From the NCBI GenBank assembly GCA_963790345.1, contig CAWBOD010000011.1, positions 227,681 through 291,680 on the forward strand: a stretch of 64,000 bases of DNA. Direction: 5' to 3'. Shown one piece after another: positions 3,354 through 63,023 of this stretch. The DNA is from an uncultured Acidimicrobiia bacterium (lineage in GTDB: Bacteria > Actinomycetota > Acidimicrobiia > Spongiisociales > ZC4RG35). Positions within the stretch are counted from its first letter, which is position 1; the number at the start of each line of letters is the position of its first letter. Made by a program: the position numbers and the translations under genes. A model generated the notes under the pieces. It saw nothing but the letters and a program-made list of their open reading frames with translations, did no database searches and was not told the DNA's origin.

Positions 3354-5337
3354 GTGTCCGCCACCATCACGCCTGAAGTCCTCTGGACCCTGCCGCGGGT
3401 GGGAGCGCCTGTTCCGGCCGGCCGCGGCCGCGTCGTGGTCCCGGTGACCACCTACGACATCGCCGCCAACAAGGGAAGCGGCCGCATCTGGCTGATCGAA
3501 CAAGATGGATCCAGGCGACCTCTGACCGCTCCGGACTTCAACGCTTCGAAGCCCACCGTGCATCCGACCGATTCGAAACTGGCCTTCATCGCCTCGATCG
3601 GTGACGAGAAGGTCAAGCAGGTCTTCGTCTCGGACCTCGATCACGAAGCCCATCCCGATTCGACCAAAGCCTCGACTTCCTTCCCGCTCGGCGCGCTCGG
3701 GGGGCCGCTGGCTTCTCGACGGCCACGCGCTGGTGGTGCTGGCGTATCTGTTCAAAGGACACCTCGATCTCGAAGCCACGGGCGAGGAGATGGTCCGTCG
3801 CCAGGACGCCAAATTCGTCTCTCACACAACCGAAGATCTCATCTATAGATATTGGGACACGTGGCTGACCACCGGTGAAGTCCCCCACCTCTTCCGGGTG
3901 GATCTGGAGTCGAGCGGCGTCGTCGACCTGACTCCCCGGTCGACCCGATGGTGGAGCTGGCCGAGCACAGATGACCCCATCGACAGCCTGACGATCTCCC
4001 CCGATGGACGTCACCTCTGTTACGTCGCCGACTCCTCGGAGCCACCCCATCGGAGAATCAGGCGACACCTGTACGAGATCGACCTGGAGACCGGGCACGA
4101 ATCCGACGTGACCCCCGACGGTGTCGTCCAGGTCCATCGCCCCCGATACTCACAGGACAGCCAGAGCATCGTCTACGGCTTCCAGATCGTTCCCGACTAC
4201 TACGGAGACCCGGTGAGGTTGGGTAGGTTCGATCGCGACAGCGACGAACATCGAAAACTGGCCGAGGGATGGGATCGATCGGCCGATCAATGGGAGTTCG
4301 ACGGCCGCGGTGATCTGCTCATCGTTGCCGAAGAGGCCGGCTATTCCCATCTGTTTCGCCTGACTTGGATGGACCCGCAGCCGCAACCGATTGCTCTCGG
4401 CGGGAGTTTGGGTTCTCCCGCCGTGGATACTGACGGAACGGTCTATCTCCTTCGTCACAGCCTGCGGGAGCCGCCTGAGGTAGTCAGGCTCGGCGCCGAT
4501 GGCGTGCTGGAGCCGTTGACCGATTTCGCCGCAAGCCTTCTCGACGGCATCAGTTGGGGACCGGTAGAAGACCTCACCTTCCTGGGAGCGGACGAGGACC
4601 CGGTGCAGATGTTCCTGATTCATCCACCGGAGCCGACCGAGGAATCGGGAGGCGGACCGCCCCCGTTGTTGCATCTCATTCACGGTGGACCCCATGGAGC
4701 CTTCATCGACGGATGGCAGTGGCGCTGGCACGCCCAAAGCTTCGCTGCCCGGGGATTCCTGGTGGCCATGGTCAACTTCCACGGCTCCACCTCTTTCGGC
4801 TCGTCGTTCACTTCCTCGATCCAGGGAGCATGGGGAGACAAGCCCTATCGGGATATCGAGGCGGCGACTGACCTGCTCGTCGGTCGTGGCCTGGTCGACG
4901 AGGCCAGAATGGGGCTCGCCGGCGGGTCGTACGGGGGGTATCTGGTGGCGTTCATTACCGGTCAGACCAGCCGGTACTCGTGTGCTGTCGCCCACGCCGC
5001 CGTCACCAACCTGGGCGGCATGTATGCATCGGATATCACAGGGGGTCGGGCCCTGGCTTACGGAGCAGAGATATTCGAGGACCGCGCCAGGGTCGAGCGA
5101 TACAGCCCTTCCTCCCATGCCGTCGGGTATTCCACCCCGACCCTGGTCATCCATGGGGAGAGGGACTACCGGGTGCCGACGACCCAAGGCCTCGAGCTCT
5201 ATGGCGTTTTGAAGGCCAAAGACGTCCCGGCCCGGCTGGTTGTTTACCCCTCCGAGAACCACTGGATTCTCAACCCTCAACCATCACTTCACTGGTACGA
5301 CGAAGTGTTCTCATGGCTCGACGTCTACTTGAGGTAG
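3354..5337 (+). pseudogene. S9 family serine peptidase (prolyl oligopeptidase/acylaminoacyl peptidase type), one frameshift
   Basis: The N-terminal propeller (GTG 3354, VSATITPEVLWTLPRV...FPLGALGG) is in frame 3. It continues in frame 1 as RWLLDGHALVVLA... through GGSYGGY and a C-terminal His region. The switch falls at a G6 run, 3700..3705. Confidence 0.85.
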
Positions 5338-5424
5338 AGACCTTACCCGCGGTTTTGTGGGTAAGTCGATTTTGTCATTCGACACCGGCCAGATGCGCTC
5401 CCGACCCGAGCGTTCCCGGGGCAA

Positions 5425-6084
5425 ATGGACATGGCTGAGACGGTCCTGGTGTTTGCAGGGGGAGATCCTCCCCCGCCAGCGGTCCTGGACCAGGTTCCGG
5501 CTGACGCCTATGAGCCGAATGGTGGCTTTGTGATCGCCGCCGACTCGGGCTTCGACCATGCCCGGCGGCTGGGGGTGGCGGTGGACCTGGTGGTCGGGGA
5601 TCTGGATTCCATTTCCGCCGAGGGACTCACAGCCGCCAAGGAAGTCGACCAGTACCCGACGGACAAGGACTCGACCGACCTCGCCATCGCCCTCGATACC
5701 GCGGCCCGGAGAAAGCCATCCCGGGTCATCGTGATAGGTGGGGCGGGCGGGCGCATCGATCACTTCCTGGCCAATGCCGGCCTGCTGGCATCTTCCGAAT
5801 ATGCCGATCTCGACCTGGTGTGGCTGCCGGGGGATGCCGTGATCCATGTCGTGCGACGCCGAGTTCAACTGTCCGGGTCGCCTGGCGACCTGGTGAGCCT
5901 TCTCCCCTTCGGCGGCCCGGTGCGGGGCGTGACCACCGACGGGCTTCGATGGCCCTTGCGTACCGCCCTGCTGGCGCCCGGCACCAGTCTGGGGGTATCG
6001 AATCAAATGTTGGGCACAACGGCCGTGGTGGAAGTCGGGGAAGGAGTCCTGCTCAGCGTCCAGCCCGACACCACACGAAAGTAG
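5425..6084 (+). CDS. thiN: thiamine pyrophosphokinase
   Basis: 219 aa with VVGDLDS, YPTDKDSTDLAIAL and GGAGGRIDH motifs. Confidence 0.85.
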   Translation: MDMAETVLVFAGGDPPPPAVLDQVPADAYEPNGGFVIAADSGFDHARRLGVAVDLVVGDLDSISAEGLTAAKEVDQYPTDKDSTDLAIALDTAARRKPSRVIVIGGAGGRIDHFLANAGLLASSEYADLDLVWLPGDAVIHVVRRRVQLSGSPGDLVSLLPFGGPVRGVTTDGLRWPLRTALLAPGTSLGVSNQMLGTTAVVEVGEGVLLSVQPDTTRK

Positions 6085-6105: not shown

Positions 6106-6537
6106 ATGGACTTCGGGTCGAACCTCTTGAACCTTCTCGTTGCGGCCGGTCTGTCCGGGCTGGTCGGATTCGAGCGTCAATTCAAACAACGCGACGCCGG
6201 CCTCCGCACCCACATGATGGTGGGCATGGGAGCGGCGCTGTTCACCATCGTCGGAGCTGAACTGGGTATGGACCGAACCCGCATGGCCGCACAGGTGGTT
6301 TCCGGAATCGGCTTCATCGGCGCCGGGACCATCTTTCGGGCGGGCGACAGCATCAAGGGCCTGACCACTGCGGCGGGGTTGTGGACGGTGGCGGCCATCG
6401 GAGTAGCCGCGGGATTCGGAATGATCGGACTCGCCACTACAGCGACGCTGGTTGCTCTCTTTGTGCTTTTCGGACTCCTGCCGGTGGTCGATTGGATCGG
6501 CCGGGGACGCACCCCGAAAGCCGACAGCTCGGACTAG
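6106..6537 (+). CDS. mgtC: MgtC/SapB family membrane protein
   Basis: 143 aa. GFERQ...AGLRTH, GIGFIGAGTIF and GLTTAAGLW signature of the MgtC family. Confidence 0.85.
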   Translation: MDFGSNLLNLLVAAGLSGLVGFERQFKQRDAGLRTHMMVGMGAALFTIVGAELGMDRTRMAAQVVSGIGFIGAGTIFRAGDSIKGLTTAAGLWTVAAIGVAAGFGMIGLATTATLVALFVLFGLLPVVDWIGRGRTPKADSSD

Positions 6538-7506
6538 GAGGAATAGACCTCGGGGTTGACGCACCACTGGAGTGGGCGACCCTCGAGGCCTGCCGCCAAA
6601 TTCTCCACCGCTCTGGTGGCCATGGCCAGCCGGGTCCGCACGCTGGCGGACCCGATGTGCGGTATCACGATGCAATTGGGCATCGATACCAGCGGGTGAT
6701 CGGCGGGTATGGGCTCCGGATCGGTGACATCGAGAGCGGCGCGGCCCATCCGCCCGGAAGCAAGGGCACTGGCCAGGGCGTCGTGATCCACCAGGCCACC
6801 ACGGGCGATATTCACCAATGTGGCCCCGGGCTTCATCGCGTTGAGGGCGGCCTCGTCGATGAGGCGCCGGGTCGAAGGGTTGAGTGACGCGCTCGAGAAT
6901 GACGTGGTCCGACTCGGCGAGGAGTTCCCCCACCTCCCGGTAACCGATCTTCAACTCGGACTCGAGAGAGGCTTTGCGACTGGGTCCGGAGTACAACATC
7001 CGGACTCCAAAGCCAGCGAGGCGGCGCGCAATCGCTTCACCGATCCTTCCCAGACCGATGATCCCAACGGTGGAGCCGTGAAGGTCCTCGCCCGTGAGGA
7101 GGTCAAGGCTCCACTGCCTCCAGTGCCCGCCCCGAACCAGATCCTGGCCCTCCGGAATCCGCCGGAGGCTGGCGAGGAGAAGCGCCATGGCGGTATCGGC
7201 GGTGGTCTCGGTCAGGACATCCGGGGTGTGTCCCACGGGGATTCGCCGGGCGGTGCAAGATGCAACATCGATGTTGTCGACTCCCACCGCCATTTGGGAG
7301 ACCACGCGCAAACGCGGGGCCGAGTCCAGGAGCACCGCGTCGACCTGATCGATCAGCATGCATAGGAGTCCCTCTGCCTCCCCCAACTCCTCGAGTAGCG
7401 AAAGGCGCTCGGCCGGATCGGGTCCAGGGAACTCGAACGCAGGGCCTGGCGGGTAGAGGGATCGGGCCGCTTCCGGCAATCCCCCAGTCACTACGAACCT
7501 GGCCAC
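6534..7506 (-). pseudogene. D-isomer-specific 2-hydroxyacid dehydrogenase (glyoxylate/hydroxypyruvate reductase-like), one frameshift
   Basis: N-terminal part (MARFVV...GIIGLGRIGEAIARRL...ESDHVIL) is in one frame. C-terminal part (SASLNPSTRRLIDEAALNAMKPGATLVNIARGGLVD...PHIGSAS) is in another. Junction near 6890..6897. The rest of the 731-aa ORF is antisense noise. Confidence 0.85.
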
Positions 7507-7564: not shown

Positions 7565-8394
7565 ATGCCTCGAATCCGGTTCGCCGTGACCACAGGCCCC
7601 CGGGCCCGGCTCATCTTCTTCGGCGTGATCGCCGCGACCCTTCTGAGCGCTTGTGATGCGGCGTCGACCGCCAAGGCGATGTCCCGGACGACGACGTCCA
7701 CCGCCTCTAGACCACGACCACGACCACGGAATATCAATCACCCGTCATGTCCGTGACAAGTACCACCCTCGTCACGGCCGAGTCGTTGTCAGCCGGTTCC
7801 TCGCTCATCGGACAGGCAAAGGCGAACGTGGAGATCTACGAATGGCCGGGGGTAACGGCCCCTTCCCGGATTCTCGAGGCAGCCACTCTCCTGGGCTCAC
7901 CCCGCGTGTTCCTGGTGGAAACGGGACCCATTGATGGCTGGGTCGAAGTGGCCCTTCCCATCAGACCGAATGGGTCCACGGGGTGGGCGAGGGCGGGCGA
8001 CCTGGAGCTCAAGGTGGTCGATCACGCGATCGTCGTCGACTTGTCCGCGCGGTGGCTGCGCCTCGAACAGGGTGATGAGATCGTGCTGGAAACGGAGGTG
8101 GCAGTCGGGTCGCCCCATAACCCGACCCCGGTCGGCAACTATTTCGTGACCGATGTCGTGGAGCTCGCCGACCCCACCGGCCCCTGGGGTCCCTTCGCTC
8201 TAGGGCTCTCCGCCTTCTCCGACACCATCACCGAATTCAACGGTGGCGACGGTGTCATCGGAATCCATGGCACCAACCGCCCCGCCAGCATCGGGGAACC
8301 CGTCTCGCTTGGGTGCGTGAGAGTCCCCAATGATGTTGCCGTCCGTCTGGCCGACCTCGTGAAACTGGGGACGCCCGTAGAGATCAGGGCCTGA
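7565..8394 (+). pseudogene. L,D-transpeptidase (YkuD domain) lipoprotein, one frameshift
   Basis: Signal/lipobox (LIFFGVIAATLLSAC) and a Thr-rich linker are in frame 2. The catalytic part in frame 1 ends with IGIHGT...SLGCVRV. Frames switch near 7705..7712. Confidence 0.75.
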
Positions 8395-9639: not shown

Positions 9640-9738
9640 GCCGACAGGCTAGACCCTCGGCCGAGCAGTGGACTGTCGAGCACGCGGCAAGCGGCCGGCG
9701 ATCAGCCTCCGAGATTGCGGGCGATGATCATGATCTCG

Positions 9739-10608
9739 TCATTGGAGCTCGCCGGGATCTCGAAGGAGGACGACGTCGCGGATCTCGTCGATATGGGTCT
9801 GCACATCCTCGACCGTTGGAACCACCTTTGCGCCTGCGAACCACCCGGGATTGGTCCCGATGAAGATCCTGCCATACCGCCCTCCCCCGGCGGTGAAGAT
9901 CTCATGGCTGTATGGATTGGTCTCTGACGCCAGGAAGACGACCAGGGGCATGACTTGCTCCGGAGCCAACAGATCTGCCAGTGGACCCAGGAGTTGTTCG
10001 GTCATGCGAGTCCTGGCGACAGGGCCGATCACATTCGATTGGATCCCGTACTTGGCCCCTTCGATCGCAAGAACATTGGAGAGGCCGACGAGTCCCATCT
10101 TGGCGGCCCCGTAATTGGCCTGGCCAAAGTTCCCAAACAGGCCCGAGTTGGACGAGGTGTGGACGAACCGACCATACCCCTTCTCCTTCATCACCTTGAA
10201 GGCCGGCATCGAGACATAGAACGCACCTTTGAGATGAGTGTCGAGAACCCCATGCAGGTCGTCGAGGGTGAGATTGGAAAAGCTCCGGTCCCGCAGGATC
10301 CCCGCATTGTTGATGACCACGTCCACGGTGCCGAAGGCCTCGACTGCCGCCCCGATGATCGCCTCGCCGCCTTCCGGGCTGGATACGGAGTCGTAGCTGG
10401 CGAGGGCTTCGCCACCGACCGACTTGATCTCGGCGACCACCGCGTCGGCCGCCCGGGTTCCCGCCCCGCTGCCATCGACTGATCCGCCCAGGTCGTTGAC
10501 GACCACGCGGGCCCCTCGCCGCGCCAACTCGAGTGAATACGCCCGGCCCAGCCCCCCGCCGCCACCGGTGACCACAGCCACGCGGCCATCAAAGGATATG
10601 TCGGACAT
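9739..10608 (-). CDS. SDR family oxidoreductase (multifunctional-enzyme-type 3-hydroxyacyl-CoA dehydrogenase-like)
   Basis: Starts at ATG 10608 (MSDISFDGRVAVVTGGGGGLGR), inside the longer 405-aa ORF. NNAGIL and YGAAK catalytic motifs present. Confidence 0.85.
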   Translation of the reverse strand: MSDISFDGRVAVVTGGGGGLGRAYSLELARRGARVVVNDLGGSVDGSGAGTRAADAVVAEIKSVGGEALASYDSVSSPEGGEAIIGAAVEAFGTVDVVINNAGILRDRSFSNLTLDDLHGVLDTHLKGAFYVSMPAFKVMKEKGYGRFVHTSSNSGLFGNFGQANYGAAKMGLVGLSNVLAIEGAKYGIQSNVIGPVARTRMTEQLLGPLADLLAPEQVMPLVVFLASETNPYSHEIFTAGGGRYGRIFIGTNPGWFAGAKVVPTVEDVQTHIDEIRDVVLLRDPGELQ

Positions 10609-10634: not shown

Positions 10635-12330
10635 CTACAGCCCCAAGGCTCTGGCCACGAAGGTAGCCATCTGGTCTCGCTTTACCGGGTCGATCGGGCA
10701 ATACAGACTGGGAGTGGTGCTGCAGCCGGTCGTGATCCCGGCCAGACGAATCGCCTCGACTGCCTGGGCGTACCACTGGTCGGCGGGAACATCTCCGAAA
10801 ATCGAACCGGCGGCCGGTTGGGAGAGCTGAAAGGCGCGGTTGAGAAAAACCGCCATCTCCGCACGCGTGACAGGCCGGTTGGGACCGTAAGTCCCGTCCG
10901 CGTTGCCGGTCGTGATGCCGAGCTCTCTGAGCCGCTCCACGTAGCCGGTGTACCACTGCCCCGCCGGAACGTCGGGAAAGGCGCCGGTGAAAGAAGCCGA
11001 GGGCTGTTCCTCGATAGCCGCAATGAGAAACGCAGCCATTTCAGCGCGGGTGACGTTGGAGGCGGGACAGAACCGATCGACCAGCGGAGGATTGCATCCA
11101 CGAGTGATGCCCCGGGCGGCGATGGCCTCGATGTTGGACTCGTGGAAGTTTCCGTTGTCGTCAATGAACCGCTCGCTGACGGCGTCGCCCTGGACCCGCA
11201 CCCGGAAGCTTTCGCCGGTCCTCTCGAGAATCGTGATGGTCATTCCCCGGACCGAGAACGAGTCCCCGACAGCGAAGACATGCTCGCTCGAGCTGAAGGA
11301 CACGGTCGGCGGGACCGGTGCTGTCCTGCGATCGAGGCCGAAGCAACCGCCGACGATCGAAGGTGAGCAACTGTTCTGATCGATCGAATAGACCTCCACC
11401 CCCTCGGCAGGAAGGCCGAAGTCGTATCCGCTCCGCACTCTGACGCTCAATGTCTCGAAGACGCCCTGCTGATCGGTTGGGAGCACAAGCATCCTGACCC
11501 CGGCCGTGGCCCCGAGGGTGTAGACCAGGTCCCCTCCACGGTGGAAGTAGACGCCCTCCGGACCAAACCACCCGGCCGCATAGCGGTTGACTGCGATCGT
11601 CCCGATGTCGAGATCGTCGGAGTCGCCCCCGCTCATCAGATCCATCGGATTGTCATATTCGTAAATGACGCCGTCCTCGAACGTCGCCAGGCCGGCGAAG
11701 GAATGGGGCCAGAAAATGGCGTGACCTATTTCATGGGCGGCGGTGCGGAACGCCGGCGAGCTTTCGAAACCCGACCAGCGCCTCCCCACCGACCACAACG
11801 ATCCGCGAGTTGGCCGGATAGGTGCTCGGACACCCCTGGGTGACTCGACAAACGAAGCCACCAGTTGCATAGCCGCCGCCGTAGGAGGCGTCCACCACGA
11901 CCAGCGCCCCTTCGCTGATCCCCGAACTCTCGAACGCGACCAGCCCTTCGCATTCTCCTTGCAGGTGGAAGGGATTGTCGGGCCATTGCGACGGAGCGGT
12001 CGCAGTGACAGTCCCGGCGGCTGCGAACACAGGGCGATACTGATTGGCGGACAGCGCCTGAAAGTACGAAGTGACCGAGGCGTTGAGCACGTCGGCAGCT
12101 TTGGCCGGAGTGATCGGAACGCTTCCGTCGGGAACATCGCAGACCCACACCTCCCAGGAGTCCGTGCCGGTCGAGTACGTATCGGTCTGGTCCTTGTGCG
12201 AGATCAGCCCCAGAGGATCCGACCCGTACGGATCTGTCTGAGCTGCCGCCGGCAACGACGTCATGAGCAGCAGAATCAGTGATGAGACCGCCCCCACCTT
12301 GCTCAACTCGCCGAGTGGCGACCGCCTCAC
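10635..12330 (-). pseudogene. secreted zinc metalloprotease with three C-terminal SLH repeats, one frameshift
   Basis: N-terminal signal peptide (VSSLILLLMTSLPAAAQ) frame joins the HEIGHAIFWPH frame near 11765..11772. C-terminus has three SLH-like repeats (FPDVPAGQWY..., FGDVPADQWY...). Start is either GTG 12330 or ATG 12375. Confidence 0.7.
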
Positions 12331-14288: not shown

Positions 14289-14368
14289 TACGTTTGCCGC
14301 GCTGCGAACGGGGCCATTGCTCCTCCAGATTTCAGCGGACGGCTCTCTCTTGACGGAGCATACCGATG

Positions 14369-15514
14369 TCAGCTGTGCTGTATCCAAGGGACTCGAGGAG
14401 CTGGCTCACCTCGGTTGCCGATGAGACAGGGTCGGGTGATGTCGATCCAGGAGGAATCGACAGCCGGCGTTAGGGAGAATCGGGGGGCGGGAGCGGGCTG
14501 AGGGATGCCGTCGATGTCGACGAACGTCTCTCTGGCCAACAGGTGGTCGTCGATGAGCGATTCGGAGAGTGACCAGACCGGTGAAACGCAGGCATCGGTC
14601 CCCGCGAACCGCTCTACCCATTCTCCCCGGGTGCGGCTGGCGAATTCGGCCTCGAACCGCGCCGTCATAGCGGCCCAGCCCTTGCGGTCGTATTGATCGC
14701 CGACTTCGGCAGCAGCGAGATCGAGGCCCTTCAGCAGTTCGGCGAAGAACTGCGGCTCGAGAGCGCCCACCGCTACGAAGCCGCCTTCGCGGGTGCCGTA
14801 GGTGCGATAGAACGGGGCCGCGCCGTCGAGCAGATTCGATTGGCGTCCATCCACCCAGCTTCCGGAAGCAAGCAGTCCTCGCAAGGCGGCGGCCAACAGG
14901 GCAGATCCGTCGACCATGGCCGCATCCACCACCTGGCCTTCCCCGGAACTTCGGGCGTGGTTGAGCGCGGCCAGAACCCCCACCAACAAGAGCATCGCCC
15001 CTCCGCCGTAGTCGGCCACCAGGTTCAGAGGGGGATAAGGGCGATCGGCCGGTCCGATCGCGGAAAGGTTTCCAGATACCGCCAGATAGTTGATGTCGTG
15101 TCCAGCCGTCGCCGCCAAGGGTCCCGCCTGACCCCAACCGGTCATGCGACCGTATACGAGGGCCGGGTTGCGGGCGTGACACTCCTCCGGTCCCAGTCCG
15201 AGCCGTTCGACCACTCCGGGCCGGTGACCTTCGATCAGAATGTCGGCGGAGGTTGCCAGGCGCAGAACCACCTCGACTCCGGTCGGCTGTTTGAGATCGA
15301 CGACGATGGACCTCTTCCCTCGCGTTGTGGGATCGGAACCAGTCATCTCCGCGATGAGCCCGGGTTCGGGTCGATCGACCCGGACAACGTCGGCTCCGAG
15401 GTCGGCCAGGACCATGCCGGCAAACGGCACCGGGCCGATCCCCGCCAATTCCACCACCTTGACTCCATCGAGTGGCCCCCCGCGTCGTGAAGTGTCGTGA
15501 TTCGCAGTGACCAT
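14369..15514 (-). CDS. CoA-transferase family III protein (alpha-methylacyl-CoA racemase-like)
   Basis: GPLDGVKVVELAGIGPVPFAGMVLADLGADVVRVDRP N-terminus typical of the CaiB/BaiF family. Start taken as ATG 15514. Confidence 0.85.
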   Translation of the reverse strand: MVTANHDTSRRGGPLDGVKVVELAGIGPVPFAGMVLADLGADVVRVDRPEPGLIAEMTGSDPTTRGKRSIVVDLKQPTGVEVVLRLATSADILIEGHRPGVVERLGLGPEECHARNPALVYGRMTGWGQAGPLAATAGHDINYLAVSGNLSAIGPADRPYPPLNLVADYGGGAMLLLVGVLAALNHARSSGEGQVVDAAMVDGSALLAAALRGLLASGSWVDGRQSNLLDGAAPFYRTYGTREGGFVAVGALEPQFFAELLKGLDLAAAEVGDQYDRKGWAAMTARFEAEFASRTRGEWVERFAGTDACVSPVWSLSESLIDDHLLARETFVDIDGIPQPAPAPRFSLTPAVDSSWIDITRPCLIGNRGEPAPRVPWIQHS

Positions 15515-17713: not shown

Positions 17714-17760
17714 CGCCGATCGAGACGAAGAGGCCTCGACGACAGGTCACGACGCAGGAG

Positions 17761-18560: not shown

Positions 18561-18590
18561 CGGCGGTCTTGCAGACTTCGACGAGCCGCT

Positions 18591-19487: not shown

Positions 19488-19556
19488 GAAAACTCCTCTT
19501 CTCGATCTCTTAACACTATCACCGTAGTGGTAACTCGACCCGGGGGTACACTCCGG

Positions 19557-21951: not shown

Positions 21952-21952
21952 C

Positions 21953-46667: not shown

Positions 46668-46814
46668 CCTGCGAGGGTATCAGCGGGGTGTGACGCTTTC
46701 GGGGACCGCAGGCACGGCCGACACCATCGGCCTCACCGTTGGCAGGCCCGTCCAGATGTGGCTGTTGCCGACAGTTATCGTGGCGATGCTGGTTTTCGAG
46801 GAACGGAGACTGAC

Positions 46815-47015: not shown

Positions 47016-47019
47016 CTCT

Positions 47020-49554: not shown

Positions 49555-49596
49555 ACGTTCGAATCATACAGGAAGCCACTGACAGAAAACACCCCC

Positions 49597-51094
49597 TCAC
49601 ACCGGAGCGAACGAAATTTTTCTGGCGCCATCCAACGGACCAACAAACTCGAGCAGCCGCTCCGCCTCCCTCACCACCTCGGCTCTGTTCGCACTTGAAA
49701 GCGGGCGGAAAGCCTTCACTAATAGCTCCGATCCCTGCAACGACCAGGTGCCGGCTACGAACCCATCCACGAGGAAGGTCGGCATCACCTGGGCACCTCC
49801 CGGCATGACCAACTTTCGATCCTCATCGCTGATGATCCTGGTGCAACGTCGGCGTTTCCCAGCAGGACGTTGTCAAACGGGGAAGGAACCGGACCGGCGC
49901 AGGCACGTGGATGTCCATGAGTACCGCGTCGGGCAGGTCGAAGAGATTCACCTTCCTCCGTGCGATAGACCACGAACGAAATTTTTCTGGCGCCATCCAA
50001 CGGACCAACAAACTCGAGTAGCCCCTCCGCCTCCCTCTTCACTTCGGCCCTGTTCGCGTGAAAGCGGGCGGAAAGCCTTCACCAATAGCTCCGATCCCCG
50101 CAACGACCAGGTGCCGGCCACGAAGCCGTCCACGAGGAAGGTCGGCACCACCTGGGCACCTCCCGGCATGACCACCTTTCGATCCTCATCGCTGATGATC
50201 CTGGTGCGGTCGGCGTGGCCCAGCAGGACGTTGTCGAACGCGGGAAGGAACCGGACCGGCGCCGGCACGTCAATGTCAACGACGGCCGCGTCAGGCAGGT
50301 CGAAAAGTTCACCTTGCTCTGTGCGATAGACCCGCAGACCCGGTCGCATCCTTTCGAAGATCTCACCCGTCCTGGTGAGACCGGACCAACTCTGGAAGTC
50401 ACTGACGGCGGCCGGTCCGAAACCTGCCAGGTACCTTCGGATCAGCGCCTCCGGTTGCGACACGGACATCTCTCCCACAACGACCTCGGCACGAACAACC
50501 GCCACGCCAGCAGGGCTTCCCCATCGCCCCCACGAGCTGGTCGCGGGCGAGTGGACCAGCGGCACACGACGTTCCAATGCCGCAACCAGCACCTGACCAT
50601 TGCGTCCCGGCCACTTCTCGACGAAGCGCTTCCCCAATTCACGCCTTGTCAAGCGTGTTGTCGGCGAGAAGTTCGATTCCGACAGCCGTGATCTCATCGA
50701 GGTCGAGTCCGATCGTCTCGCGGGCGACATAGGGAGACCGGGCGTTGCGATCGAGTACCGGCTGGATCGTCGGTCGGAGCCAGCGGAAATCCTCCGCAGC
50801 CACGAGATGTTGCGTGCTTCGCAGTGCGGCGCCGCGCACCACCTGGCCGCTGCTCAGCAACGACACCAGATCGTCCCGTCGAAAGTCGACGACCCGGGCC
50901 CAGAGCCCGACATAAGGCCAGTTGGGCTCCTGCGCCTGCAGCGCGACGAGGCGTCGGATTACGTCGAGCGGAGAAAGCGAGACACGGTCGAGGAGAAACT
51001 GCCGGTCGAGCAGAGTTCGGTTGAGGGCGCGAAGCGAAATCTGGCTCCCGTTTACCAAGCGGCGCCGATCCCATTCACTCCCGTACCCACACAC
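49597..51094 (-). pseudogene. winged-helix AlkZ/YcaQ-like DNA glycosylase family protein with duplicated C-terminal segment, several frameshifts
   Basis: N-terminal LRALNRTLLDRQFLLDR...LVALQAQEPNWPYVGLWARV. The middle and C-terminal parts lie in other frames. The last ~120 codons occur twice in tandem. The start may be GTG 51055. Confidence 0.7.
49608..50332. repeat. ~365-bp direct tandem duplication (2 copies, roughly 90% identical by eye)
   Basis: CGAACGAAATTTTTCTGGCGCCATCCAACGGACCAACAAACTCGAG... begins at 49608 and again at 49973. Both copies end ...GTGCGATAGACC (49960..49971 and 50321..50332). Confidence 0.9.
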
Positions 51095-52239
51095 TCACAT
51101 TCGACGGTTGCATCGTCTGCCTGGCCACACGCTCGAGGTCCCGACCCAACTCCGCCAGATCGACCTCGGACGACAACCGGCGCGACATCGCCTCCATGGT
51201 CCTTTCACGATCAAACCTGGAACGGTTGAACCTCCGGTCCACCGCGTTCTGTATTCGTCGACGCAACGGATTGAACAGCGCTGCCGCGAGCAACGTCGAC
51301 CCTGCCACCGCGAATTCCCCCTGCAGCGGCGGCAGACTTCCCAGCACGAACACCGTTGTCAAATAGATTCCGATCAACACGGCCGACACCAACCCGTAGG
51401 ACACCGTCCGCGAGATGATTCGATCGATCTCATATAGGCGATAGCGAACGACGGCCAGTGCCATCGCCGCCGGAATGCTCAGCGGGGCGAGCGTCCAGAC
51501 CACGTGACCGAGGTCGTTCTCCATCTGGACTGGCAGGGCCAGATTGAGCGCCAGGAGCACAGAGAGGGTGGCACCAGCCGCAAGAAAGACCCATCTGATC
51601 TGCAATCGTTCGATCCCCAGGGAACGCCGGTAGCGGATGCCCAGGATCACTACTCCACCGACGAACGAGACCCCGGTGGCGAGGCCCTCGATAACCGTGA
51701 GAATCGGGAGTGCGGATCGCATGAACCCAAGCCCAACCGGGTTGGCAACGGTTGGCAGATCTTCCAGTGGGCCCGGAGTGAAGGCCAGGCGGGCACCAGT
51801 CGCCGAGCGCGCCGGCAAGCGCCACGAACACCAACACCCGACCCAACTTCCCCATCGGTCGCCCGGAGGGGTAGAGCAATAGGAGCAATCCGAAGCTCAG
51901 GACGAAACCGGGGGTGCGAAGCACGGTCGCCAACCAGGCGGCTGCTGCGCCCTGCGACCACCCTTCGTGCACGGCGAGAACCGCGTATTCGCCTGCCCCG
52001 ACCTGGGTGGCGGCAGCCACCCCCGCGATCAGCAGCACCAGTCCGATCGTTTGGCGAGGGCGGTGAACCAGGATGACTGAACCAAGAGCTGTCATTGCGA
52101 TCGCAAAGATGAGACCTTCCCAGGCGTACTCGTAGTGGGCCAGCGACGGCCTGCGTTCGACCGCAAGGAGGAGGCCGATCCCACCCAGTACAAACAGGCT
52201 CACCCAGACCCAGCTGCCGATCAGCCACGTCCCCCTCAT
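51075..52239 (-). pseudogene. polytopic membrane protein, paralog 1 (sensor-kinase-like N-terminal module without kinase), one frameshift
   Basis: N-terminal helices are in ORF 51430..52239. The C-terminal part is in ORF 51075..51818 (RYRLYEIDRIISRTVSYG...LFNPLRRRIQNAVDRRFNRSRFD). Switch near 51800. Confidence 0.6.
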
Positions 52240-53396
52240 CCGCTGGCTGCGCGCACCCAGACGCTGACATTCGACGGCTGCATCGTCTGATGCGCCACTT
52301 GCTCCAACTCGAGGCCCAGGGCCGACAAGTCCACCTCATTGGCCAATCGCCGGGACAAGGCTTCCATCGTCAACTGGGCATCGAAGCGCGACCGGTTGAA
52401 CCGGCGGTCCACCGCATTCTGAATCCGCCGCCGCAGCGGGTTGAAAAGGGCCGCCGACAACAACGTCGAACCTGCGACGGCGAATTCTCCCTGCAGGGGC
52501 GGCAGACTCCCCAGCACAAAGACCGCTCCCAGGTACACGGCCACCAACACCGCCGTCACCAATCCATAGGAGACCGTCCGCGAAATGATCCGGTCGATGT
52601 CATACAACCGGTACCGCAGGACCGCGACACCAAAGGCGATCGGGAAGCTCAGCATGGCGAGGTAGACGATGATCCAGGGCCCGTCGCCCGGGTCCTCTCC
52701 TTGCATCGCTTCCGCAACGGTGATCCATATGAGGGTCACGACGATCGACAAGACCAGGAAGGCCAGCGGCAGCACCACCCACCCGAGCTGAGCACGCTCA
52801 ACCCCCGTCGAGTGCCGCCGCCGCACGACGAGCGACACCGCCCCACCGATCAGGATCACCACCAGCACGAGATAGGACGGCAGCCAAACCCAGGAGGGCA
52901 GAACACTGACCGGATTCTGCTCAGGCCCGTCTTGGCTCCGACGCCAGAGCGGAAACAACAACCGCGGCAGGGAGCAGCCATCGACCGGCTAGTCGCCCTA
53001 TCCGGGCCCAGCGGCTGATCCCCCACCGGCCAATGGCCGCCAGGAAACACAAGCGTCATCGCCGCAAAGAACCCAAAGACGAGCGACCATCCGGCGCGGT
53101 CCACCCAAAGCGCCAAGGTCGGGGGAACTCCTGGAAAACGTTGCACGTTGGAGACCGAGAGCACCGTGGCGCCAAGGGCAAGCAGCAGCCATCCAACAGC
53201 ATTGCCATCGCGACGGAAGATGATGATTCCCGCCAGTCCTGCGTAGGCGACCAACCCCACCACGTCGATTGCGGCTTCACCGGCCGGATATCCGGTCGTC
53301 ATCGCTCCGACCAGGACGACCACCGGCACGGCCATCAGAAGAGCAAACAACACCACGCGCCAAATCGGCGTCGCCTCGATGGCTCTGGACGTCACG
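52236..53396 (-). pseudogene. polytopic membrane protein, paralog 2, frameshift(s) near 52950..53020
   Basis: GTG 53396 (VTSRAIEATPIWRVVLFALLM...). The C-terminal ORF 52236..52961 shares RYRLYDIDRIISRTVSYG...LFNPLRRRIQNAVDRRFNRSRFD with paralog 1. A 4-nt overlap links it to paralog 1. Confidence 0.6.
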
Positions 53397-53500
53397 TACC
53401 CATTCTCGCCCACCAACGTCCCGAAAGCGTTACGAACCGCCCGGACACCGAAAGGGGATTCCCGGGCAAGCCGAACTCCGGCCCCATAGAGTGCCCGCCG

Positions 53501-55196: not shown

Positions 55197-56573
55197 GTGC
55201 CGGGCCATCTCGAACCAGACTCATTGTTGTCGGAGGCGATGCCGCCGGAATGTCGGCCGCCAGTCAAGCCAAACGTCGGAATCAAGACCTGGAGATCGTC
55301 GCGTTCGAGCGCGGCGCCTACGTCAGCTACTCGGCCTGCGGGGAGCCCTATTACATCGGTGGCCTGGTCGACGACCTCGACCGACTGGTCGCCCGGACAC
55401 CGGAGCAGTTCGCCGAACGCGGCATCGAGGTGCACACCCATCACGAAGTAACGTCGATTGACCTCGATCGCCGCGAGGTGAGCGTGGTCGACCTCGCGAC
55501 AGAGTCCTCGCGTACGATCGGATTCGACCACCTCATGGTCTCGACCGGATCGCGGCCGCTGCGCCCGTCTTATATCAGAGGCGTGAATCTTCCCGGCGTC
55601 GTCGGCCTCCGCACCCTGGAGGACGCCGACCAGATACGACAACAGTTGACGGTCGACGACGTCAAGAGAGTGGTCATCGTCGGCGGCGGGTACATCGGGA
55701 TCGAGGTCGCCGAGGCCCTGATCGATCGCGGGATCGACGTCACCATGATCACATCCGGTAGCCACGTCCTCGAGAAGACTCTGGATGCCGAGATGGGCGC
55801 TTTGGTCGACGAGGCGGTTCGGGCCTATGGCATCGACCTCCACACGGGTTCGCGGGTCCAGTGCATCCAGGGCAGCGACCGCGCCACCGGGATCGGGTGT
55901 GACGAGATGGAATTTCCGGCCGACCTCATCGTCATCGGCTTGGGTGCCGGCCCCGAGGTGGACCTGGCGAAGGGGGCAGGGATCCCGCTCGGGGCGTCCG
56001 GGGCGATTGCGGTCGACGAATTCCAACGAACGCAGGTCGAGGGAGTCTGGTCGGCGGGCGACTGTGCGGAGGTTCGACATCGGGTAACGGGCAAGCCCTT
56101 CAATGTCGCGCTCGGCACCGTGGCCAACAAGTCCGGCCGAATCGCCGGTGACAACATTGCCGCAACCATCGAGGGCTCAGACCTGAAACCCTTCCCGGGA
56201 GCCATTGGGACCGCCATCACCAAGATCGGTGACACCGAGATCTCGAGAACCGGCTTGAAGGTGGAGCAAGCCCGCCAGGCCGGTTTCGCACCCGTGGTGG
56301 GTCAAGTGACGGGTACTACGACAGCCGGCTACTGGCCGGCCGCCGAACGTCTCGATCTGATGGTGATCGCCGATGAGGACACCGGGAAAATTCTCGGGGC
56401 GCAGATCGTCGGCGGCCGGGGCGCAGGCAAGAAGATCGACGTGATTGCTACTGCGATTTGGAACGACATGACGGCAGAGGAGTTGTCGTGGGTGGATCTG
56501 TCCTATGCCCCGCCTTTCGGCGGCGGTGTGGGACTTGATTCATATCGCGGCTCGCAGGGCGGCCGGCGATTGA
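55193..56573 (+). pseudogene. FAD-dependent pyridine nucleotide-disulfide oxidoreductase (CoA-disulfide reductase/NADH oxidase family), frameshift near the 3' end
   Basis: LIVVGGDAAGMSAA, SYSACGEPYY (redox Cys), VIVGGGYIGIE, GDCA. After DLSYAPPF the expected tail AAVWDLIHIAARRAAGD-stop (TGA 56571..56573) is one frame off. Switch near 56518. Confidence 0.8.
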
Positions 56574-57376
56574 GGGTTGGCTTATCGGTTGTCCTGGCCG
56601 TTCTCACACTCTCATGCACCAGTGCTGAAGGCGGGGCGACGACCGGGGTGAATTTGCCGACGAGCGACGTCGACGTCGTCGTGACCGCCGTCGCCGACGG
56701 CGACAGCTTTCGGGCGCAGTCTCCGACTGGTGAGATCGAGGTGCGCCTGCTTGGAATCAACTCCCCCGAACTGGACGAATGCCATGGCCAGGCAGCGAGA
56801 GACGCTCTGGATCGGATGATTTCGGGCCGGGAGATCGGGTTGGCCACCGAGTCCGAAAACGATCAATTTGGTCGAGTCCTGGCCAGGGCAGTCGTGAAAG
56901 ATCGTTACGTCAATCTGGAGATGGTTGGCAACGGCGACAGCCTCGCGACAGCTGACGGAGGCACCGACCGGGAGGTCCTCTTTCAGGCCCAGGAGAGGGC
57001 ACGGGCGGCCGAAATCGGGCTGTGGGGAAGCGAGGTCTGTGGAGCCGTCGGGCCGCGGGCTTCTCTGGAAATCAGGGGTGTCGACTACGACCCGCCGGGA
57101 CCGGACGACGATGAGTCGGTGACAATCGTCAACACAGGCACCGACCCGATCGACCTGGCCGGGTTCGTGCTCAGGGATGAGTCATCGGTCAACCGCTTCG
57201 TGTTCCCGGCCGTCACCCTGGAGCCGGGACAAGAGGTACAAGTCACAACAAACTGTGGCGGGGGCGGCGACGGGACCATCTCGTGGTGCTCCGCCCAGCC
57301 GATCTGGAACAACGGTGGCGACACAGCTCTCGTGCTCGACCGGGTCGGGCGGATCGTCGCCTTCCACCGGTATTAG
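56570..57376 (+). CDS. secreted thermonuclease (SNase-like) lipoprotein with C-terminal lamin-tail-like domain
   Basis: TTG 56570 overlaps the reductase stop. RVGLSVVLAVLTLSC lipobox. DGDSFRA...VRLLGINSPE...GRVLA nuclease motifs. C-terminal ESVTIVNTG...DLAGFVLRDES...GGDTALVLD. Confidence 0.75.
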   Translation: MRVGLSVVLAVLTLSCTSAEGGATTGVNLPTSDVDVVVTAVADGDSFRAQSPTGEIEVRLLGINSPELDECHGQAARDALDRMISGREIGLATESENDQFGRVLARAVVKDRYVNLEMVGNGDSLATADGGTDREVLFQAQERARAAEIGLWGSEVCGAVGPRASLEIRGVDYDPPGPDDDESVTIVNTGTDPIDLAGFVLRDESSVNRFVFPAVTLEPGQEVQVTTNCGGGGDGTISWCSAQPIWNNGGDTALVLDRVGRIVAFHRY

Positions 57377-58056: not shown

Positions 58057-59239
58057 ATGTCTCGGATTTCCAGGCGCGTCGGGTCGATCGAAGAGTCGGC
58101 CACCATGGCGATCAGCGAACGCGCCGCGCGGCTGAAGGCCTCGGGGCGTCCCACGATCAGCTTCGGGGCCGGCGAACCCGACTTCCCAACCCCTCCCCAC
58201 ATCGTCGAGGCGGCCATCGTCGCCGCCCGCGACCCGCGCTACCACCACTACACCCCCAACGCCGGCCTCCCCGAACTTCGCGAAGCCGTCGCGGCGGCAA
58301 CTCTCCAGCACTCGGGGGTGGCAACCTCGGCCCGAGAAGTCCTGATCACCAACGGGGGCAAACAGGCTGTCTATCTGGGGCTAGCGGCATTGCTGGACCC
58401 GGGCGACGAGGTCTTGATCCCGGCTCCCTACTGGGTCACGTATCCGGAGGCGGCTGCTCTATCGGGAGGCGTGCCCGTGCGGGTGGTGGCGGGAGAAGCA
58501 GCCGGCTTCAAAGTGACGGTCGACCAACTCGAGGCTGCCACCACTCCGCGCACCAAGGTCCTCGTATTCGTCTCGCCATCCAACCCGACCGGAGCCATCT
58601 ACTCCCCCGGCGAAGTCGCGGCGATCGGTCGCTGGGCGGGGGAACGGGGCATCTGGGTTCTCACTGACGAGATCTATCAGCAACTCGTGTACCGCGGAGT
58701 CAAGGCGAAATCAATTGCAACCGTGCCCGAGCTGGAAGACAGATGGCTCATCGTGAACGGGGTCGCCAAGACCTACGCCATGACCGGCTGGCGAGTTGGG
58801 TGGTTGGTCGGACCGGCCGATGTCATCCAGGGCGCCAGCAACCATCAATCCCACATGACCTCCAATGTCAACAACATCGCCCAGCGTGCTGCCCTCGCCG
58901 GCCTAACCGGACCCACCGAGCCGATCGAGGAGATGCGACAGGCCTTCGACAAGCGGCGCCAGGCGATGCACGGAAGGCTGGCCAAGATGGCCGGGGTGAC
59001 CTGCGTCGAACCCGAGGGAGCCTTCTATTGCTACCCGGGTCTGGCGGCCCATCTGGGACGATTCGGGTCCTCGATGGGGGTTGCTTCCTACCTGCTCGAG
59101 GAGGCCGATGTGGCAGTTGTTCCAGGCGAAGCTTTCGGCACCGATGGCTATGCCGCGCCTGTCATACGCCCTCAATGATGACGACCTCGAAGAGGGTCTC
59201 GAGCGGATGGGACGGGCCCTCGAGCGGGCCCAGGATTAG
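58057..59239 (+). pseudogene. aspC: aspartate/aromatic aminotransferase (class I), frameshift near the 3' end
   Basis: [19 protein letters not shown] and PGEAFG motifs. After GTDGY the conserved [27 protein letters not shown]-stop (TAG 59237..59239) is in the adjacent frame. Switch near 59150. Confidence 0.85.
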
Positions 59240-60348: not shown

Positions 60349-60462
60349 TAGGTCCCGGTCATACCCCCGGCATCCTCACCTCGCGGGGCCATCGGGCCCA
60401 CTCGGGCGAGGTGGGGCTGGATCGTTTACGACCTGGCCAATACGATTTTCGCTCTGGGGGTC

Positions 60463-61575
60463 GTGGGGCTCTACATACCGGCCTGGCTCCATGAATCCGG
60501 CTTGCCCGACTCGGCCCTGGCCGTAACCGAAGCCCTGGCCGGAGCTTCAGTCATGGTCCTCGCCCCGTGGATCGGGATCCAGACGGATCGAGCGTCACGG
60601 CGTCTGCCTGCGCTGGGCTTGACCACCGCCGTCGCCATCATGGCCACGGCCGGGCTGGCGTGGTTCTCCCCCACCGTGACCCTCGTGTTGCTCGGACTGG
60701 CGCTGATCGGGGTCAATACCGGGTCGGCCATCTACGACTCATTGCTTCCATCCGTCAGTGACGAAGTCACGAGGGCCCGGACCTCGGGGCTCGGAGTCGG
60801 AATCGGATATCTGGGTGCCTTCGTCGGACTCGGCCTCGGGCTGCTGGCTTTCGAGGTCTTCGACGCCGGCTATCCGGCCACATTCCGGTTCCTCGCAGCC
60901 GGATTCGCCCTTTTCTCGATCCCTATCTTCGTCTGGGTTCGCGAGCAACCGCGGGCCGGGAATGAAAGGGTCTCGCTCAATCCCTTCAGAGGCTTGGCCG
61001 CAGCCTGGCGGCGAGCTGCCCGAACGCCCGGGGTGCTCCGGTTTCTCCTTGCCAGGTTCCTCTACTCGGATGCGATCAACACTCTCATCGGCGGCTTCCT
61101 GGCTCTCTTCGTGCTGACCGAATTGAACCTATCGACGAGGGAGGTCAACAACCTTCTTGGGGTTGCGATCGCCGCCGCCATCGGCGGCGGGCTCGGGGGT
61201 GGCCGACTGACAACTCGACTCGGAGCGAGACGGGCGCTGCGGGTGGCGCTCCTGCTCTGGGTCCTGGCACTTCTTCTCGGGGCCGTCACCGCCGCGATCG
61301 GGGTCACCTGGTTGATCTGGGTTGTCGGGGTGATGGGTGGCCTCGCGCTCGGTGCCACCTGGACCGCCGATCGGGTGCTGATGCTCGATCTGAGCCCGCC
61401 CCGGCACGTCGGTGAGTTCTACGGCCTCTATGCGACGGTGGGTCGGTTCGCGACCATTTTCGGTCCCCTGGTTTGGGCCGCGGTGGTCGACGGTCTTGGG
61501 TGGGGACGTACCTCGGCGCTTTTGATCCTGGCGGCCTTCATCCTCAGCGGTTGGTGGGTCGTCAGACGGGAATAG
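60463..61575 (+). CDS. MFS transporter, UMF1 family (second copy), start unresolved
   Basis: The first canonical start is GTG 60463. The family N-terminus (RARWGWIVYDLANTIFALGV) continues in frame upstream to ~60403. No ATG, GTG or TTG occurs back to the ADH stop. Confidence 0.7.
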   Translation: MGLYIPAWLHESGLPDSALAVTEALAGASVMVLAPWIGIQTDRASRRLPALGLTTAVAIMATAGLAWFSPTVTLVLLGLALIGVNTGSAIYDSLLPSVSDEVTRARTSGLGVGIGYLGAFVGLGLGLLAFEVFDAGYPATFRFLAAGFALFSIPIFVWVREQPRAGNERVSLNPFRGLAAAWRRAARTPGVLRFLLARFLYSDAINTLIGGFLALFVLTELNLSTREVNNLLGVAIAAAIGGGLGGGRLTTRLGARRALRVALLLWVLALLLGAVTAAIGVTWLIWVVGVMGGLALGATWTADRVLMLDLSPPRHVGEFYGLYATVGRFATIFGPLVWAAVVDGLGWGRTSALLILAAFILSGWWVVRRE

Positions 61576-61603
61576 ATCCGGGCTTCAATCAGGTCGTCTG
61601 CAA

Positions 61604-63023
61604 TCAGGCGTCGCCTGCAATCATCCTTCTTCTGACCCGAAGCTCGAACCCCATTTCCTCGGCCAGTGCGGTCATGAGGCCGACCAGGTCGTCCCGAGCC
61701 TCTGATTCCGGAAACCGTTCGATGGAATCGAAAGCCTTTTCGAGGCTCTCGGCGGACTTCTCCATATCGCCGGCTCTCCACTGTTCCACTGCTTTTTCAA
61801 TCCGTTCGTCCACTTCCCTGACGTCCTTCGGTTTGTAATCGGGAGGACCTAGTGAGGCGAGGAGAGTCCCTATCTCAGCTGCCAGGGAGGTGGGGCTTGG
61901 TTCGGTGGTAGCTACCACTGACGATGTCGTTGTGGCGGCGGTCGTGGTCGAACCTGTGGTTGCCGACCGCGCCAGAACTCCCGTGTATTTGGTTCCGGAT
62001 CGGTCGGCCGCGATGGACAAAATGGCGATGACTCCCACCAGCACCAATCCTCCGGCCACGGCGAGGCTGCGCCGGAGAGGCCTGCGCTCACTCAGGTCAG
62101 AGTCTCTTCTTTCACCCTGATTCGGGTCTGGCAGCTTGAGGACGGTGGACTCGTCGGGTGAAACCCTTGACTCCGGCGGGACGAAGGGAGGCGCAGCCGG
62201 AGCGCTCACACCGACGGGGAGGACGAGCGTGGAAGGCTCGCTGAGCCCCGCGACGAAGGCTGCAGCCGAAACCGGACGCTCCGATGGGTCCTTCGCCAGA
62301 GCCCTGGTGAGAGCCGGGATGGCCTCGGGTGGAACCTTTCCGACGAGGATCGGCCCATCAGCGGTTCGGATCGCCTCGAGAAGACCAGCCGCCGTGTCCC
62401 TCGAGAAGGGCTTCTCCCCGGTGAGCATCTCGTATGTGACCGCCGCCAATGAGTAGATATCGGAAGCAGCCGAGGCGTTCTCGCCCCCGATTATTTCAGG
62501 AGCCACGTACGAGATGGTCCCGACCACTTCGCCGGGCGACGTGATGGTCGCGGCGTCGTCCAATGGCTTGGCGATCCCGAAGTCGGCCAACCGGATCCTC
62601 TCGCCGGGATCGATGATCAAGTTGGCCGGCTTTATGTCCCGATGAACGATCCCGTTGTTATGGGCGTAGTCGAGGGCAGCTGCCACCTGACCGACGAAGA
62701 GGGCGACCGTCGTGAGGTCCATCGGCCCGTGCGCCGCCAATCGTTGCGCGAGGGTTTCACCCTCGATCAGTTCCATGGCAATCCAGGGACCGTCTTGGTC
62801 CTCCCCCGCGTCGAAGACTGTGAGTATCCCCGGGTGGTTCAGTCGCGCCGCGGCCTGTGCCTCGCGGCGAAATCTGTCCGAAGAAGTCGGATTCGATTTC
62901 AGGTGAGGGGCGAGAGCGCTTGATCGCCAGCCTGCGCCCTAGAAGGGTGTCCGTAGCCCTCCAGACCGTGGCCATACCCCCGGCGCCGATCTGTTCCTCG
63001 AGGACATAGCGACCGTCAATCAC
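61604..63023 (-). pseudogene. Ser/Thr protein kinase with one TM helix and extracellular tail, one frameshift
   Basis: GTG 63023 (VIDGRYVLEEQIGAGGMATVWRATD...LAIK), then a frame switch near 62917..62921. It continues ...RFRREAQAAARLNHPGI...HRDIKPANL...DFGIA...GTISYVAPE, followed by a TM segment. Confidence 0.85.

Follow-up and report, generated by a model that had tools for sequence, protein, structure and literature searches.

Do the broken reading frames in this stretch of DNA record genes in decay, or errors made when the sequence was assembled? The window, the whole 64,000-nucleotide stretch analysed here, is part of a contig from an uncultured Acidimicrobiia bacterium of soil, and its conserved proteins hop repeatedly from one frame to another. 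More than 45 such events in at least 28 genes had been claimed from the letters and their translations. We find that the frame breaks very probably arose in the consensus sequence and are not mutations that the organism carries, and that its real genes are almost certainly intact.

Frame breaks were located with a frameshift-aware aligner, a protein-versus-DNA dynamic programme with explicit frameshift states, using as references intact genes from four syntenic relatives (A–D, 66–97% amino-acid identity). Raw six-frame tblastn is uninformative, as every frame cross-matches at such DNA similarity, and the aligner was used instead. Open reading frames of the GcvP region from 80 genome_contigs and 80 metagenome_contigs loci are at most 69% identical with poor synteny, and were dropped as too distant; the relatives finally used are 84–88% identical and were reached via the protein collection. 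A reference-free codon-usage Viterbi frame map correctly finds many of the switches but, with a GC3 of only about 0.75, is noisy as to strand and served only as a guide. The aligner yields 50 robust events across 48,875 assessable coding bases, at positions where independent references are concordant to a few bases; events seen with one reference only (33491/33510, 37394, 48211, 42423 and 42819) were judged doubtful and excluded. Further sites, added separately, are five in the Calx-beta N-terminus, one in the S9 peptidase (3698), about seven in 48.3–53.1 kb and one in the kinase (62915), which brings the total to about 63 across 28 genes, so that the original prediction slightly undercounted the events. 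Not every event is a single base: the one at 29740 is a 58-nt segment and the one at 7709 a 5- or 11-nt difference. The corrected translations are family-like, as had been noticed, with 66–97% identity to intact orthologues in the four syntenic contigs. In-frame stops, whose absence had also been remarked on, do not occur with references A, B and D; among approximately 16,000 corrected codons none is credible, and one dubious stop appears with a 50%-identical reference.

Starting from the left end of the window, the S9 peptidase gene (3354..5334, + strand) has one frame break, with one frame ending in ...PLGALG and the next continuing as GRWLLDG...; the C at 3698, adjoining the G6 run at 3699–3704, is absent from contigs of two runs. 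The 2-hydroxyacid dehydrogenase gene (6537..7398, − strand) has an extra base at 6894, found by the aligner and absent from contigs of two runs. The YkuD gene (7664..8391, + strand) is broken near its 5′ end, where the aligner places the event at 7755 and contigs lack 5 nt (three runs) or 11 nt (one run) at 7709. Extra bases follow in the gene of a 301-aa SDR (9705..10608, − strand; base 9771, found by the aligner and absent from contigs of three of three runs) and in that of an SLH-domain protein (10638..12270, − strand; base 11770, placed by the aligner at 11772 and absent from contigs of two runs). The CoA-transferase gene (14335..15481, − strand) has one at 14464, on which references A and B are concordant, and near-identical contigs reveal two more, at 14304 and 14307, in the fadD/CoA-transferase junction.

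The first error-dense patch (15600..22715) holds about 23 events, and 31 indel places relative to four runs; the positions listed from these runs match those of aligner events. The events lie in the genes for SIMPL (15705, 15988), GH77 (16520, 16760), a methyltransferase (18250, 18413, 18483), a rhodanese (18625, 18759, 19016, 19234, 19443), SufE (19654, 19692), a Calx-beta protein (20270, 20362, 20441, 20517, 20555, 20927, 21187, 21222) and SDR253 (22690), and intergenic indels occur at 19488–19606. The adjacent stretch, 22801..29600, encodes an Asp/Glu racemase, hyp171, MenF, MenD, MenC, a cytochrome c and DinB, and is clean: it has no aligner events and only four indel places, all without effect on the frame of a gene. 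Of the 32 longest contig pieces, 31 are gap-free, with substitution divergence unchanged at 2–4%. An absence of events in 22.7–29.1 kb, fadD and menD had been proposed, and the aligner found none there; no herA gene, also named in that claim, was identified. Beyond the clean stretch, the NTP-transferase gene contains a messy, frame-shifting 58-nt extra segment (29675..29740, − strand; placed at 29740 by the aligner against both reference A and reference B). This segment is an imperfect 25-nt duplication, with a tandem repeat at 29690–29740, and the X3 and X4 contigs lack 29675–29734.

The second error-dense patch (37888..44972) has about 24 events, on which references A, B and C agree, and 49 indel places relative to four runs. 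Affected are YchF (38296), GpsA (39260, 39732, 39938), MaoC (40505), hyp302 (40797, 40914, 41152), SbcC (13–14 events from 41741 to 43528) and SbcD (44482, 44647), all of them intact in the relatives; one of the indel places is +T behind 39260, in four of four runs. A second clean stretch (44988..48222, − strand), with hyp558 (97% identical to reference A) and GSDH, shows no credible frame breaks by the aligner. It is followed by a variable island (48309..53434, − strand), found in the relative L168 and missing from references C and D, where about seven events affect a DUF222-HNH gene (48814, 49070, 49413), an AlkZ-like gene split at Pfam position 100/101 (approximately 50640–50730) and a tandem pair of hyp406-like genes (approximately 51700–51800; 52938, 53014). 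Towards the right end, an aminotransferase gene (58057..59236, + strand) has an extra base at 59153 (references C and D; two runs), and a second MFS gene (60403..61616, + strand) is broken near its 3′ end, at about 61568 (references C and D). The Ser/Thr kinase gene (61607..63050, − strand), in which the Pkinase match begins at profile position 39, has extra bases at 62915, absent from four of four runs, and at 61639, absent from two. Outside the first patch, near-identical contigs place further intergenic indels at 10624, 57975 and 63436–63463.

The events are thus distributed with about 23 in 15.6–22.7 kb, 24 in 38.3–44.65 kb, about 7 in 48.3–53.1 kb and 1 in 22.7–38.3 kb. The clustering claimed at the outset holds: under frameshift-aware alignment the spread is uneven (chi-square, 4-kb bins, p = 8e-11), the densest 6.5-kb span contains 23 events, where 5000 permutations give 19 at most, and the longest event-free run covers 7305 assessable bases (P = 0.016). 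Event rates are 2–4 per kb inside the patches and 0.06–0.5 per kb elsewhere, the patches measuring 4–16 kb and the untouched stretches between them 7–15 kb. Indel places counted relative to independent contigs give the same picture (49 in 38–45 kb, 31 in 15.5–22.8 kb and 4 in 22.8–30.1 kb), while in the same runs substitution divergence is equal across the dense patches and the clean stretch. GC content was considered as a cause of the patches; the profiles are similar, at 0.625–0.639 in the patches and 0.64–0.664 in the clean stretch.

Contigs from other samples bear directly on whether the organism itself carries these indels. The indels are absent from contigs of 96–98% identity to the window, which come from at least five unrelated runs (soil or rhizosphere) and agree among themselves to the base at those sites; two of the comparator runs carry Nextera adapter tails and are therefore short-read libraries. 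In a search for the source run, the best run shares 0.28–0.36 of the 31-mers of the window, and so represents a relative, not the strain of the window. The nearest comparators differ by 2–4% in substitutions, which formally leaves room for private strain mutations and hence for genuine, very recent gene decay, in which about 60 true frameshifts would have made 28 young pseudogenes, perhaps after a population bottleneck or the loss of a repair function. The indels are, after all, present in the deposited sequence, and the repair nuclease SbcCD is among the broken genes.

The lesions themselves make such decay very unlikely. Nonsense mutations are usually a sizeable share of the inactivating lesions in bacterial pseudogenes, yet some 60 frameshifts here come without credible nonsense codons. 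Nor is constraint relaxed: in the corrected frame, third positions take 90% and 69% of substitutions in the patches versus 74% in the clean stretch, and in a relative-rate test the ratio of window-unique to reference-A-unique amino-acid changes is 149:111 for patch genes and 164:146 for clean ones (Fisher P = 0.31). The indels are blind to function, striking housekeeping genes (gpsA, ychF, sufE) as well as intergenic DNA, and they fall several to a gene, up to 14 in one and 5 in a gene of 292 aa, although one suffices to inactivate. Under decay, moreover, it would be odd that the 7–15 kb between patches are spared. A real, very recent and localised burst of frameshifts, for instance through error-prone gap-filling over tracts of 4–16 kb in a lineage newly without SbcCD or another repair function, would leave patches of single-base insertions ahead of substitutions and selection; it is likewise very unlikely. 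Against consensus error, patch genes have a slight, non-significant surplus of window-unique amino-acid changes (ratio 1.34 versus 1.12).

The control that also argues against decay is L168 (ENA ERZ25039550 contig_61680, 318.7 kb). This relative shares the gene order of the window and carries its own set of about 28 frame breaks within 21 kb. These are mostly extra bases, patchy and stop-free, and differ from those of the window in gene and position. The same syndrome thus recurs at other sites in a long ‘contig_N’ assembly and in none of four short-read-style contigs (k141_ and JGI Ga), in which the genes are intact. To judge from the names and sizes of the contigs, the syndrome appears to follow assembly type rather than lineage. 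We prefer consensus error because the indels are absent from near-identical contigs, the damage is of indels only, constraint is unchanged, intergenic DNA carries indels and L168 shows the same syndrome. The original prediction had likewise favoured consensus error over old pseudogenes, and the absence of the indels from 96–98% identical contigs, the lack of stops and the retained constraint bear it out.

Programmed recoding, in which ribosomal frameshifting or transcriptional slippage would restore the frame in vivo, has a negligible probability: the approximately 60 sites share no slippery motif, the shifts run in both directions with up to 14 per gene, orthologues are single-frame in all relatives, 96–98% identical contigs lack the shifts, and intergenic DNA also carries indels. 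An alternative genetic code was considered and rejected, the shifts going in both directions, without a common motif, and being absent from relatives.

The near-identical contigs allow some of the indels to be placed exactly, and among these, extra bases outnumber missing ones by 31 to 9 (direction bias P = 7e-4). Twenty of the 31 extra bases are singletons and only 2 lie inside runs of three (background 15%); nine of the 31 stand directly next to a run of at least three of a different base (background 8.8%, P = 0.001). Of the nine missing bases, four are beside a run of 3–4 of their own kind. The 50 aligner events are no closer to runs of at least four than are random coding positions (P = 0.8–0.9). 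Many events had been attributed to G/C homopolymers, and most of that claim does not hold. The G6 runs exist, at 3699–3704 (one base off the coordinates first given) and 38291–38296, and there is a weaker link, by adjacency. The indels themselves are mostly outside runs, and at the gpsA, 19443 and S9 sites the contigs put the indel next to the cited G run, not within it. The error is mainly a random extra base; homopolymer slippage is not the main mode. A pure homopolymer-slippage sub-type, as in Nanopore R9, 454 or Ion Torrent data, is ruled out, with no effect on the class of artefact.

How could consensus errors of this type arise in patches? Uneven coverage, uneven polishing and strain mixing had been suggested at the outset. 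The size of the contig alone, 443.6 kb, suggests a long-read metagenome assembly. A weakly supported consensus would retain spurious single bases, about three-quarters of the events, and drop true bases, about one-quarter, often at short runs. Because the patches, at 4–16 kb, are of the same order of length as long reads, the patchiness most likely comes from stepwise changes in long-read depth, or in how far polishing extended, in a genome of low coverage. The merging of co-occurring strains into a single consensus may be an alternative or added cause, with mis-merged alleles, for example of recombined tracts, leaving extra bases behind. As the main cause of patchiness we regard it as a minority possibility, to be taken seriously yet doubtful. 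It agrees with the predominance of extra bases that are mostly not homopolymer expansions, and contigs of 90–95% identity make up a larger share in the patches than in the clean stretch. SbcC, the densest gene, is also the most variable, with 79% identity to reference A (neighbours, 90–97%) and 8–10% nucleotide differences to contigs in its region. Against it, outside SbcC the substitution divergence to near relatives is alike inside and outside patches (approximately 2.5–3.4%), and the rhodanese (90%) and SufE (95%) of the first patch are not more variable than MenD (75%) and cytochrome c (69%) of the clean stretch.

Residual indels in long-read consensus sequences are a familiar problem, for which IDEEL scoring, polishing with short reads and programs such as proovframe are used. 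The window resembles the Nanopore or PacBio CLR form of this problem, with indel-only damage, gene calls that are fragmented or falsely fused, and corrected proteins that are full-length and conserved. It differs from the contraction of homopolymers in Nanopore R9 data in that extra bases outside homopolymers dominate (31 versus 9), and from usual long-read consensus indels in that its errors are strongly patchy at 4–16 kb. Pseudogene-rich reductive genomes, such as those of Mycobacterium leprae and recently host-restricted bacteria, also have frequently frameshifted conserved genes. Unlike in those genomes, the lesions of the window include no nonsense mutations, come without relaxed constraint, hit single genes several times, affect intergenic DNA equally, are missing from near-identical relatives, whose genes are intact, and are patchy along the chromosome instead of sorted by gene dispensability. 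In long-read assemblies, leftover consensus indels lead to frameshifted gene calls, and near-finished quality needs approximately 40-fold coverage (PMC9262707); raw PacBio CLR errors are mostly insertions (10.1101/2021.08.23.457338), and the severity of the consensus indels is set by coverage and polishing (PMC9262707; 10.1101/2021.08.23.457338).

The frameshifts are a data-quality warning, not biology. Gene calls, pseudogene counts, completeness, pangenomes and ‘novel fusion proteins’ from this genome are corrupted in patches, and other odd findings from it need to be checked against the error map, as do those from ENA ERZ25039550 contig_61680 and similar ‘contig_N’ assemblies. The error profile, of random extra bases in read-length-scale patches not bound to homopolymers, may help in curating or re-polishing such assemblies. 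Artefacts in the window include the seeming loss of gpsA, ychF, sufE and sbcCD, and a 727-aa open reading frame that joins Pyr_redox to an SNase/LTD gene. In the latter, an extra base at 56522 in the Pyr_redox gene (55217..57373, + strand), on which references C and D agree and which an X2 contig lacks, removes the stop of the gene and produces the false fusion; the fused frame has Pfam matches, and in relatives its two parts are separate genes.

The window has a G+C content of 64%, and the top named relatives of its glycine dehydrogenase gene (GcvP, 34577–37345, minus strand) are uncultured soil Acidimicrobiia and Acidimicrobiales. Distant loci (at most 69% amino acid identity) were of little use as references, so relatives at 79–88% identity on long contigs were fetched with their flanks via a protein collection. 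The references are ENA k141_7560100 (reference A; loci L161 and L164), JGI Ga0502594_08313212 (reference B; L162, L163 and L165), JGI Ga0506524_0000328 (reference C; L166) and JGI Ga0556615_0000387 (reference D; L167). Gene order is kept between the window and all four, and genes that are fragmented in the window have uninterrupted single-ORF counterparts in each of them, with sizes of 360 aa for YchF, 331 for GpsA, 778 for SbcC, 384 for SbcD, 292 for the rhodanese and 142 for SufE.

We mapped frame-breaking indels by aligning all called reference proteins to the window with a local protein-to-DNA aligner in which the loss or gain of one or two bases is modelled explicitly. Event positions agree within a few bases between mutually independent references, the frame-corrected window proteins are 66–97% identical to reference A, and the frame-corrected alignments with references A, B or D contain no in-frame stops. 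Dropping events supported by just one of two available references left 50 events across 48,875 assessable coding bases. Further breaks lie in the N-terminus of the Calx-beta protein (5, with peptide segments directly readable as hopping between frames), the S9 peptidase gene (1), the kinase gene (at 62915) and an island at 48.3–53.1 kb (about 7, in the DUF222-HNH gene, two tandem hyp406-like genes and the AlkZ-like gene, which is split exactly at Pfam position 100/101). The total of about 63 events in 28 genes shows the original prediction, of more than 45 frameshifts in at least 28 genes, to be accurate, if slightly low. Two events go beyond a single base: the NTP-transferase gene contains a messy extra segment of 58 nt (29675–29734), and at 7709 the difference is 5 or 11 nt. 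At 56522, one extra base abolishes the Pyr_redox stop and creates a false 727-aa ORF (55193–57376) with Pyr_redox, SNase and lamin-tail (LTD) domains; in relatives, Pyr_redox and SNase/LTD are separate genes, 449 and 277 aa in length. The GcvP ORF is 922 aa long, as against 943–948 aa in relatives, which possibly reflects a further sequence error or a different start; at its 5′ end (37345–37453), a missing base near 37394 is suggested by reference A but not by reference B.

The events are strongly clustered. Their density is approximately 3 per kb in two patches, at 15.6–22.7 kb and 38.3–44.65 kb, 1.5 per kb in 48.3–53.1 kb, 0.3–0.5 per kb in 3.3–15.5 and 53–63 kb, and 0.06 per kb in 22.7–38.3 kb. 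This distribution is uneven by chi-square test in 4-kb bins (p = 8e-11), and 23 events fall within 6.5 kb, more than in any of 5000 permutations. An independent count used contigs from four sequencing runs, matched at 90% identity or more to three stretches, and gives 49 indel places in 38–45 kb, 31 in 15.5–22.8 kb and 4 in 22.8–30.1 kb, at approximately equal substitution divergence across the three. The predicted clustering is therefore borne out by both the aligner and the contigs. As the patches are 4–16 kb in size, matching read length, we favour the view that they would stem from locally reduced long-read support or polishing reach. Strain collapse is a plausible contributor, in that the most variable gene, SbcC, is also the most damaged, although the patch at 15.6–22.7 kb is not unusually variable.

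Several observations separate error in the consensus, the reading preferred originally, from genuine gene decay. Short-read contigs that share 96–98% identity with the window lack the indels and are mutually consistent; they come from several unrelated runs on soil and rhizosphere, one of which, X2, shows Nextera adapter tails. In the sparse regions, the indel lists from these contigs are complete, and every aligner event is matched within 0–3 bases. Lesions in the broken genes are exclusively indels, and intergenic DNA carries indels as well. Substitutions between the window and these near relatives fall at third positions of the corrected frame in 90% of cases in the 38.3–44.65 kb patch, 69% in the 15.6–22.7 kb patch and 74% in an intact stretch; the shares in the patches indicate that purifying selection on the genes was normal over the whole of this divergence. 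A relative-rate comparison of the window with references A and B finds no significant excess of window-specific amino acid change in broken genes (149:111 versus 164:146, P = 0.31).

A control comes from L168 (ENA ERZ25039550 contig_61680, 318,749 bp), a long contig assembled independently from a related Acidimicrobiia bacterium; it shares the window's gene order, DUF222/AlkZ island included. Its positions 1–21071 (21 kb) carry their own set of approximately 28 frame breaks, which are patchily distributed, consist mainly of extra bases and come without stops. They either affect genes whose window counterparts are unbroken (hyp558, MFS, ADH) or fall at positions that differ from those in the window. 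The four short-read-style contigs show no such breaks. The frameshift syndrome thus tracks assembly type rather than lineage. Residual indels in long-read consensus are known to yield frameshifted gene calls, with quality set by coverage and polishing (PMC9262707), and insertions dominate the errors of raw PacBio CLR reads (10.1101/2021.08.23.457338); the syndrome in the window matches the documented behaviour of long-read consensus sequences. The sole direct hint of a long-read origin is that the window's own GcvP copy in the protein collection lies on a 443,582-base contig, unusually long for a soil metagenome; the platform we infer. Together, these lines of evidence support consensus error: the frame breaks are present in the record but are not a biological feature. 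The map is a useful quality flag for the genome of the window, and L168 calls for the same caution.

Otherwise the original observation describes the record well, but the emphasis it placed on homopolymers is largely not borne out. Aligner events lie no nearer to runs of four or more than random coding positions do. Exact placement by the near-identical contigs, available for 40 single-base indels, gives 31 extra and 9 missing bases in the window (P = 7e-4, n = 40). The extra bases comprise 20 singletons, 9 members of two-base runs and 2 of three-base runs, against a background of 15% of bases in runs of at least three. A modest real link remains within this weak association: 9 of the 31 extra bases lie directly beside a run of at least three of another base (8.8% in the background, P = 0.001), and same-base runs of 3–4 border 4 of the 9 missing bases. 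The cited G runs do exist, but in the S9 gene, in gpsA and at 19443 the contigs place the indel beside the run, not inside it.

The window also contains tandem repeats and a variable island. The approximately 5-kb island between GSDH and a UMF1-type MFS gene (48300–53490), which encodes the DUF222-HNH endonuclease, the AlkZ-like DNA glycosylase and the two tandem hyp406-like paralogues, is present in L168 but missing in references C and D, which have GSDH and the MFS gene 0–2 kb apart. The region varies between strains. The Calx-beta protein gene, found in reference B but not in reference A, holds a 334-nt tandem repeat (20606–21478, 2.6 copies, 80% matches), and skips of approximately 90–110 nt by contigs around 20190–20372 are probably cross-mapping between repeats. 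A 30-nt unit (CTGCTTCTCTTTCTTTAGGTCCGAGCTGAG) recurs in approximately 11 head-to-tail copies at 31845–32165 (92% matches, higher-order period 88), within a non-coding gap of lower GC that directly follows, on the downstream side, the gene for a small Lys/Ala-rich repeat protein (31613–31789); the absence of spacers rules out a CRISPR array. The intergenic region that separates the SLH-protein gene from fadD holds a 32-nt repeat (12332–12431, 3.1 copies); near-identical contigs lack 32 or 65 nt here, so its copy number differs between strains. Intergenic tandem repeats with a 14-nt unit and 3.1 copies occur twice: at 29089–29132, where an X2 contig has one additional unit, and at 63397–63440, where contigs carry several small indels.
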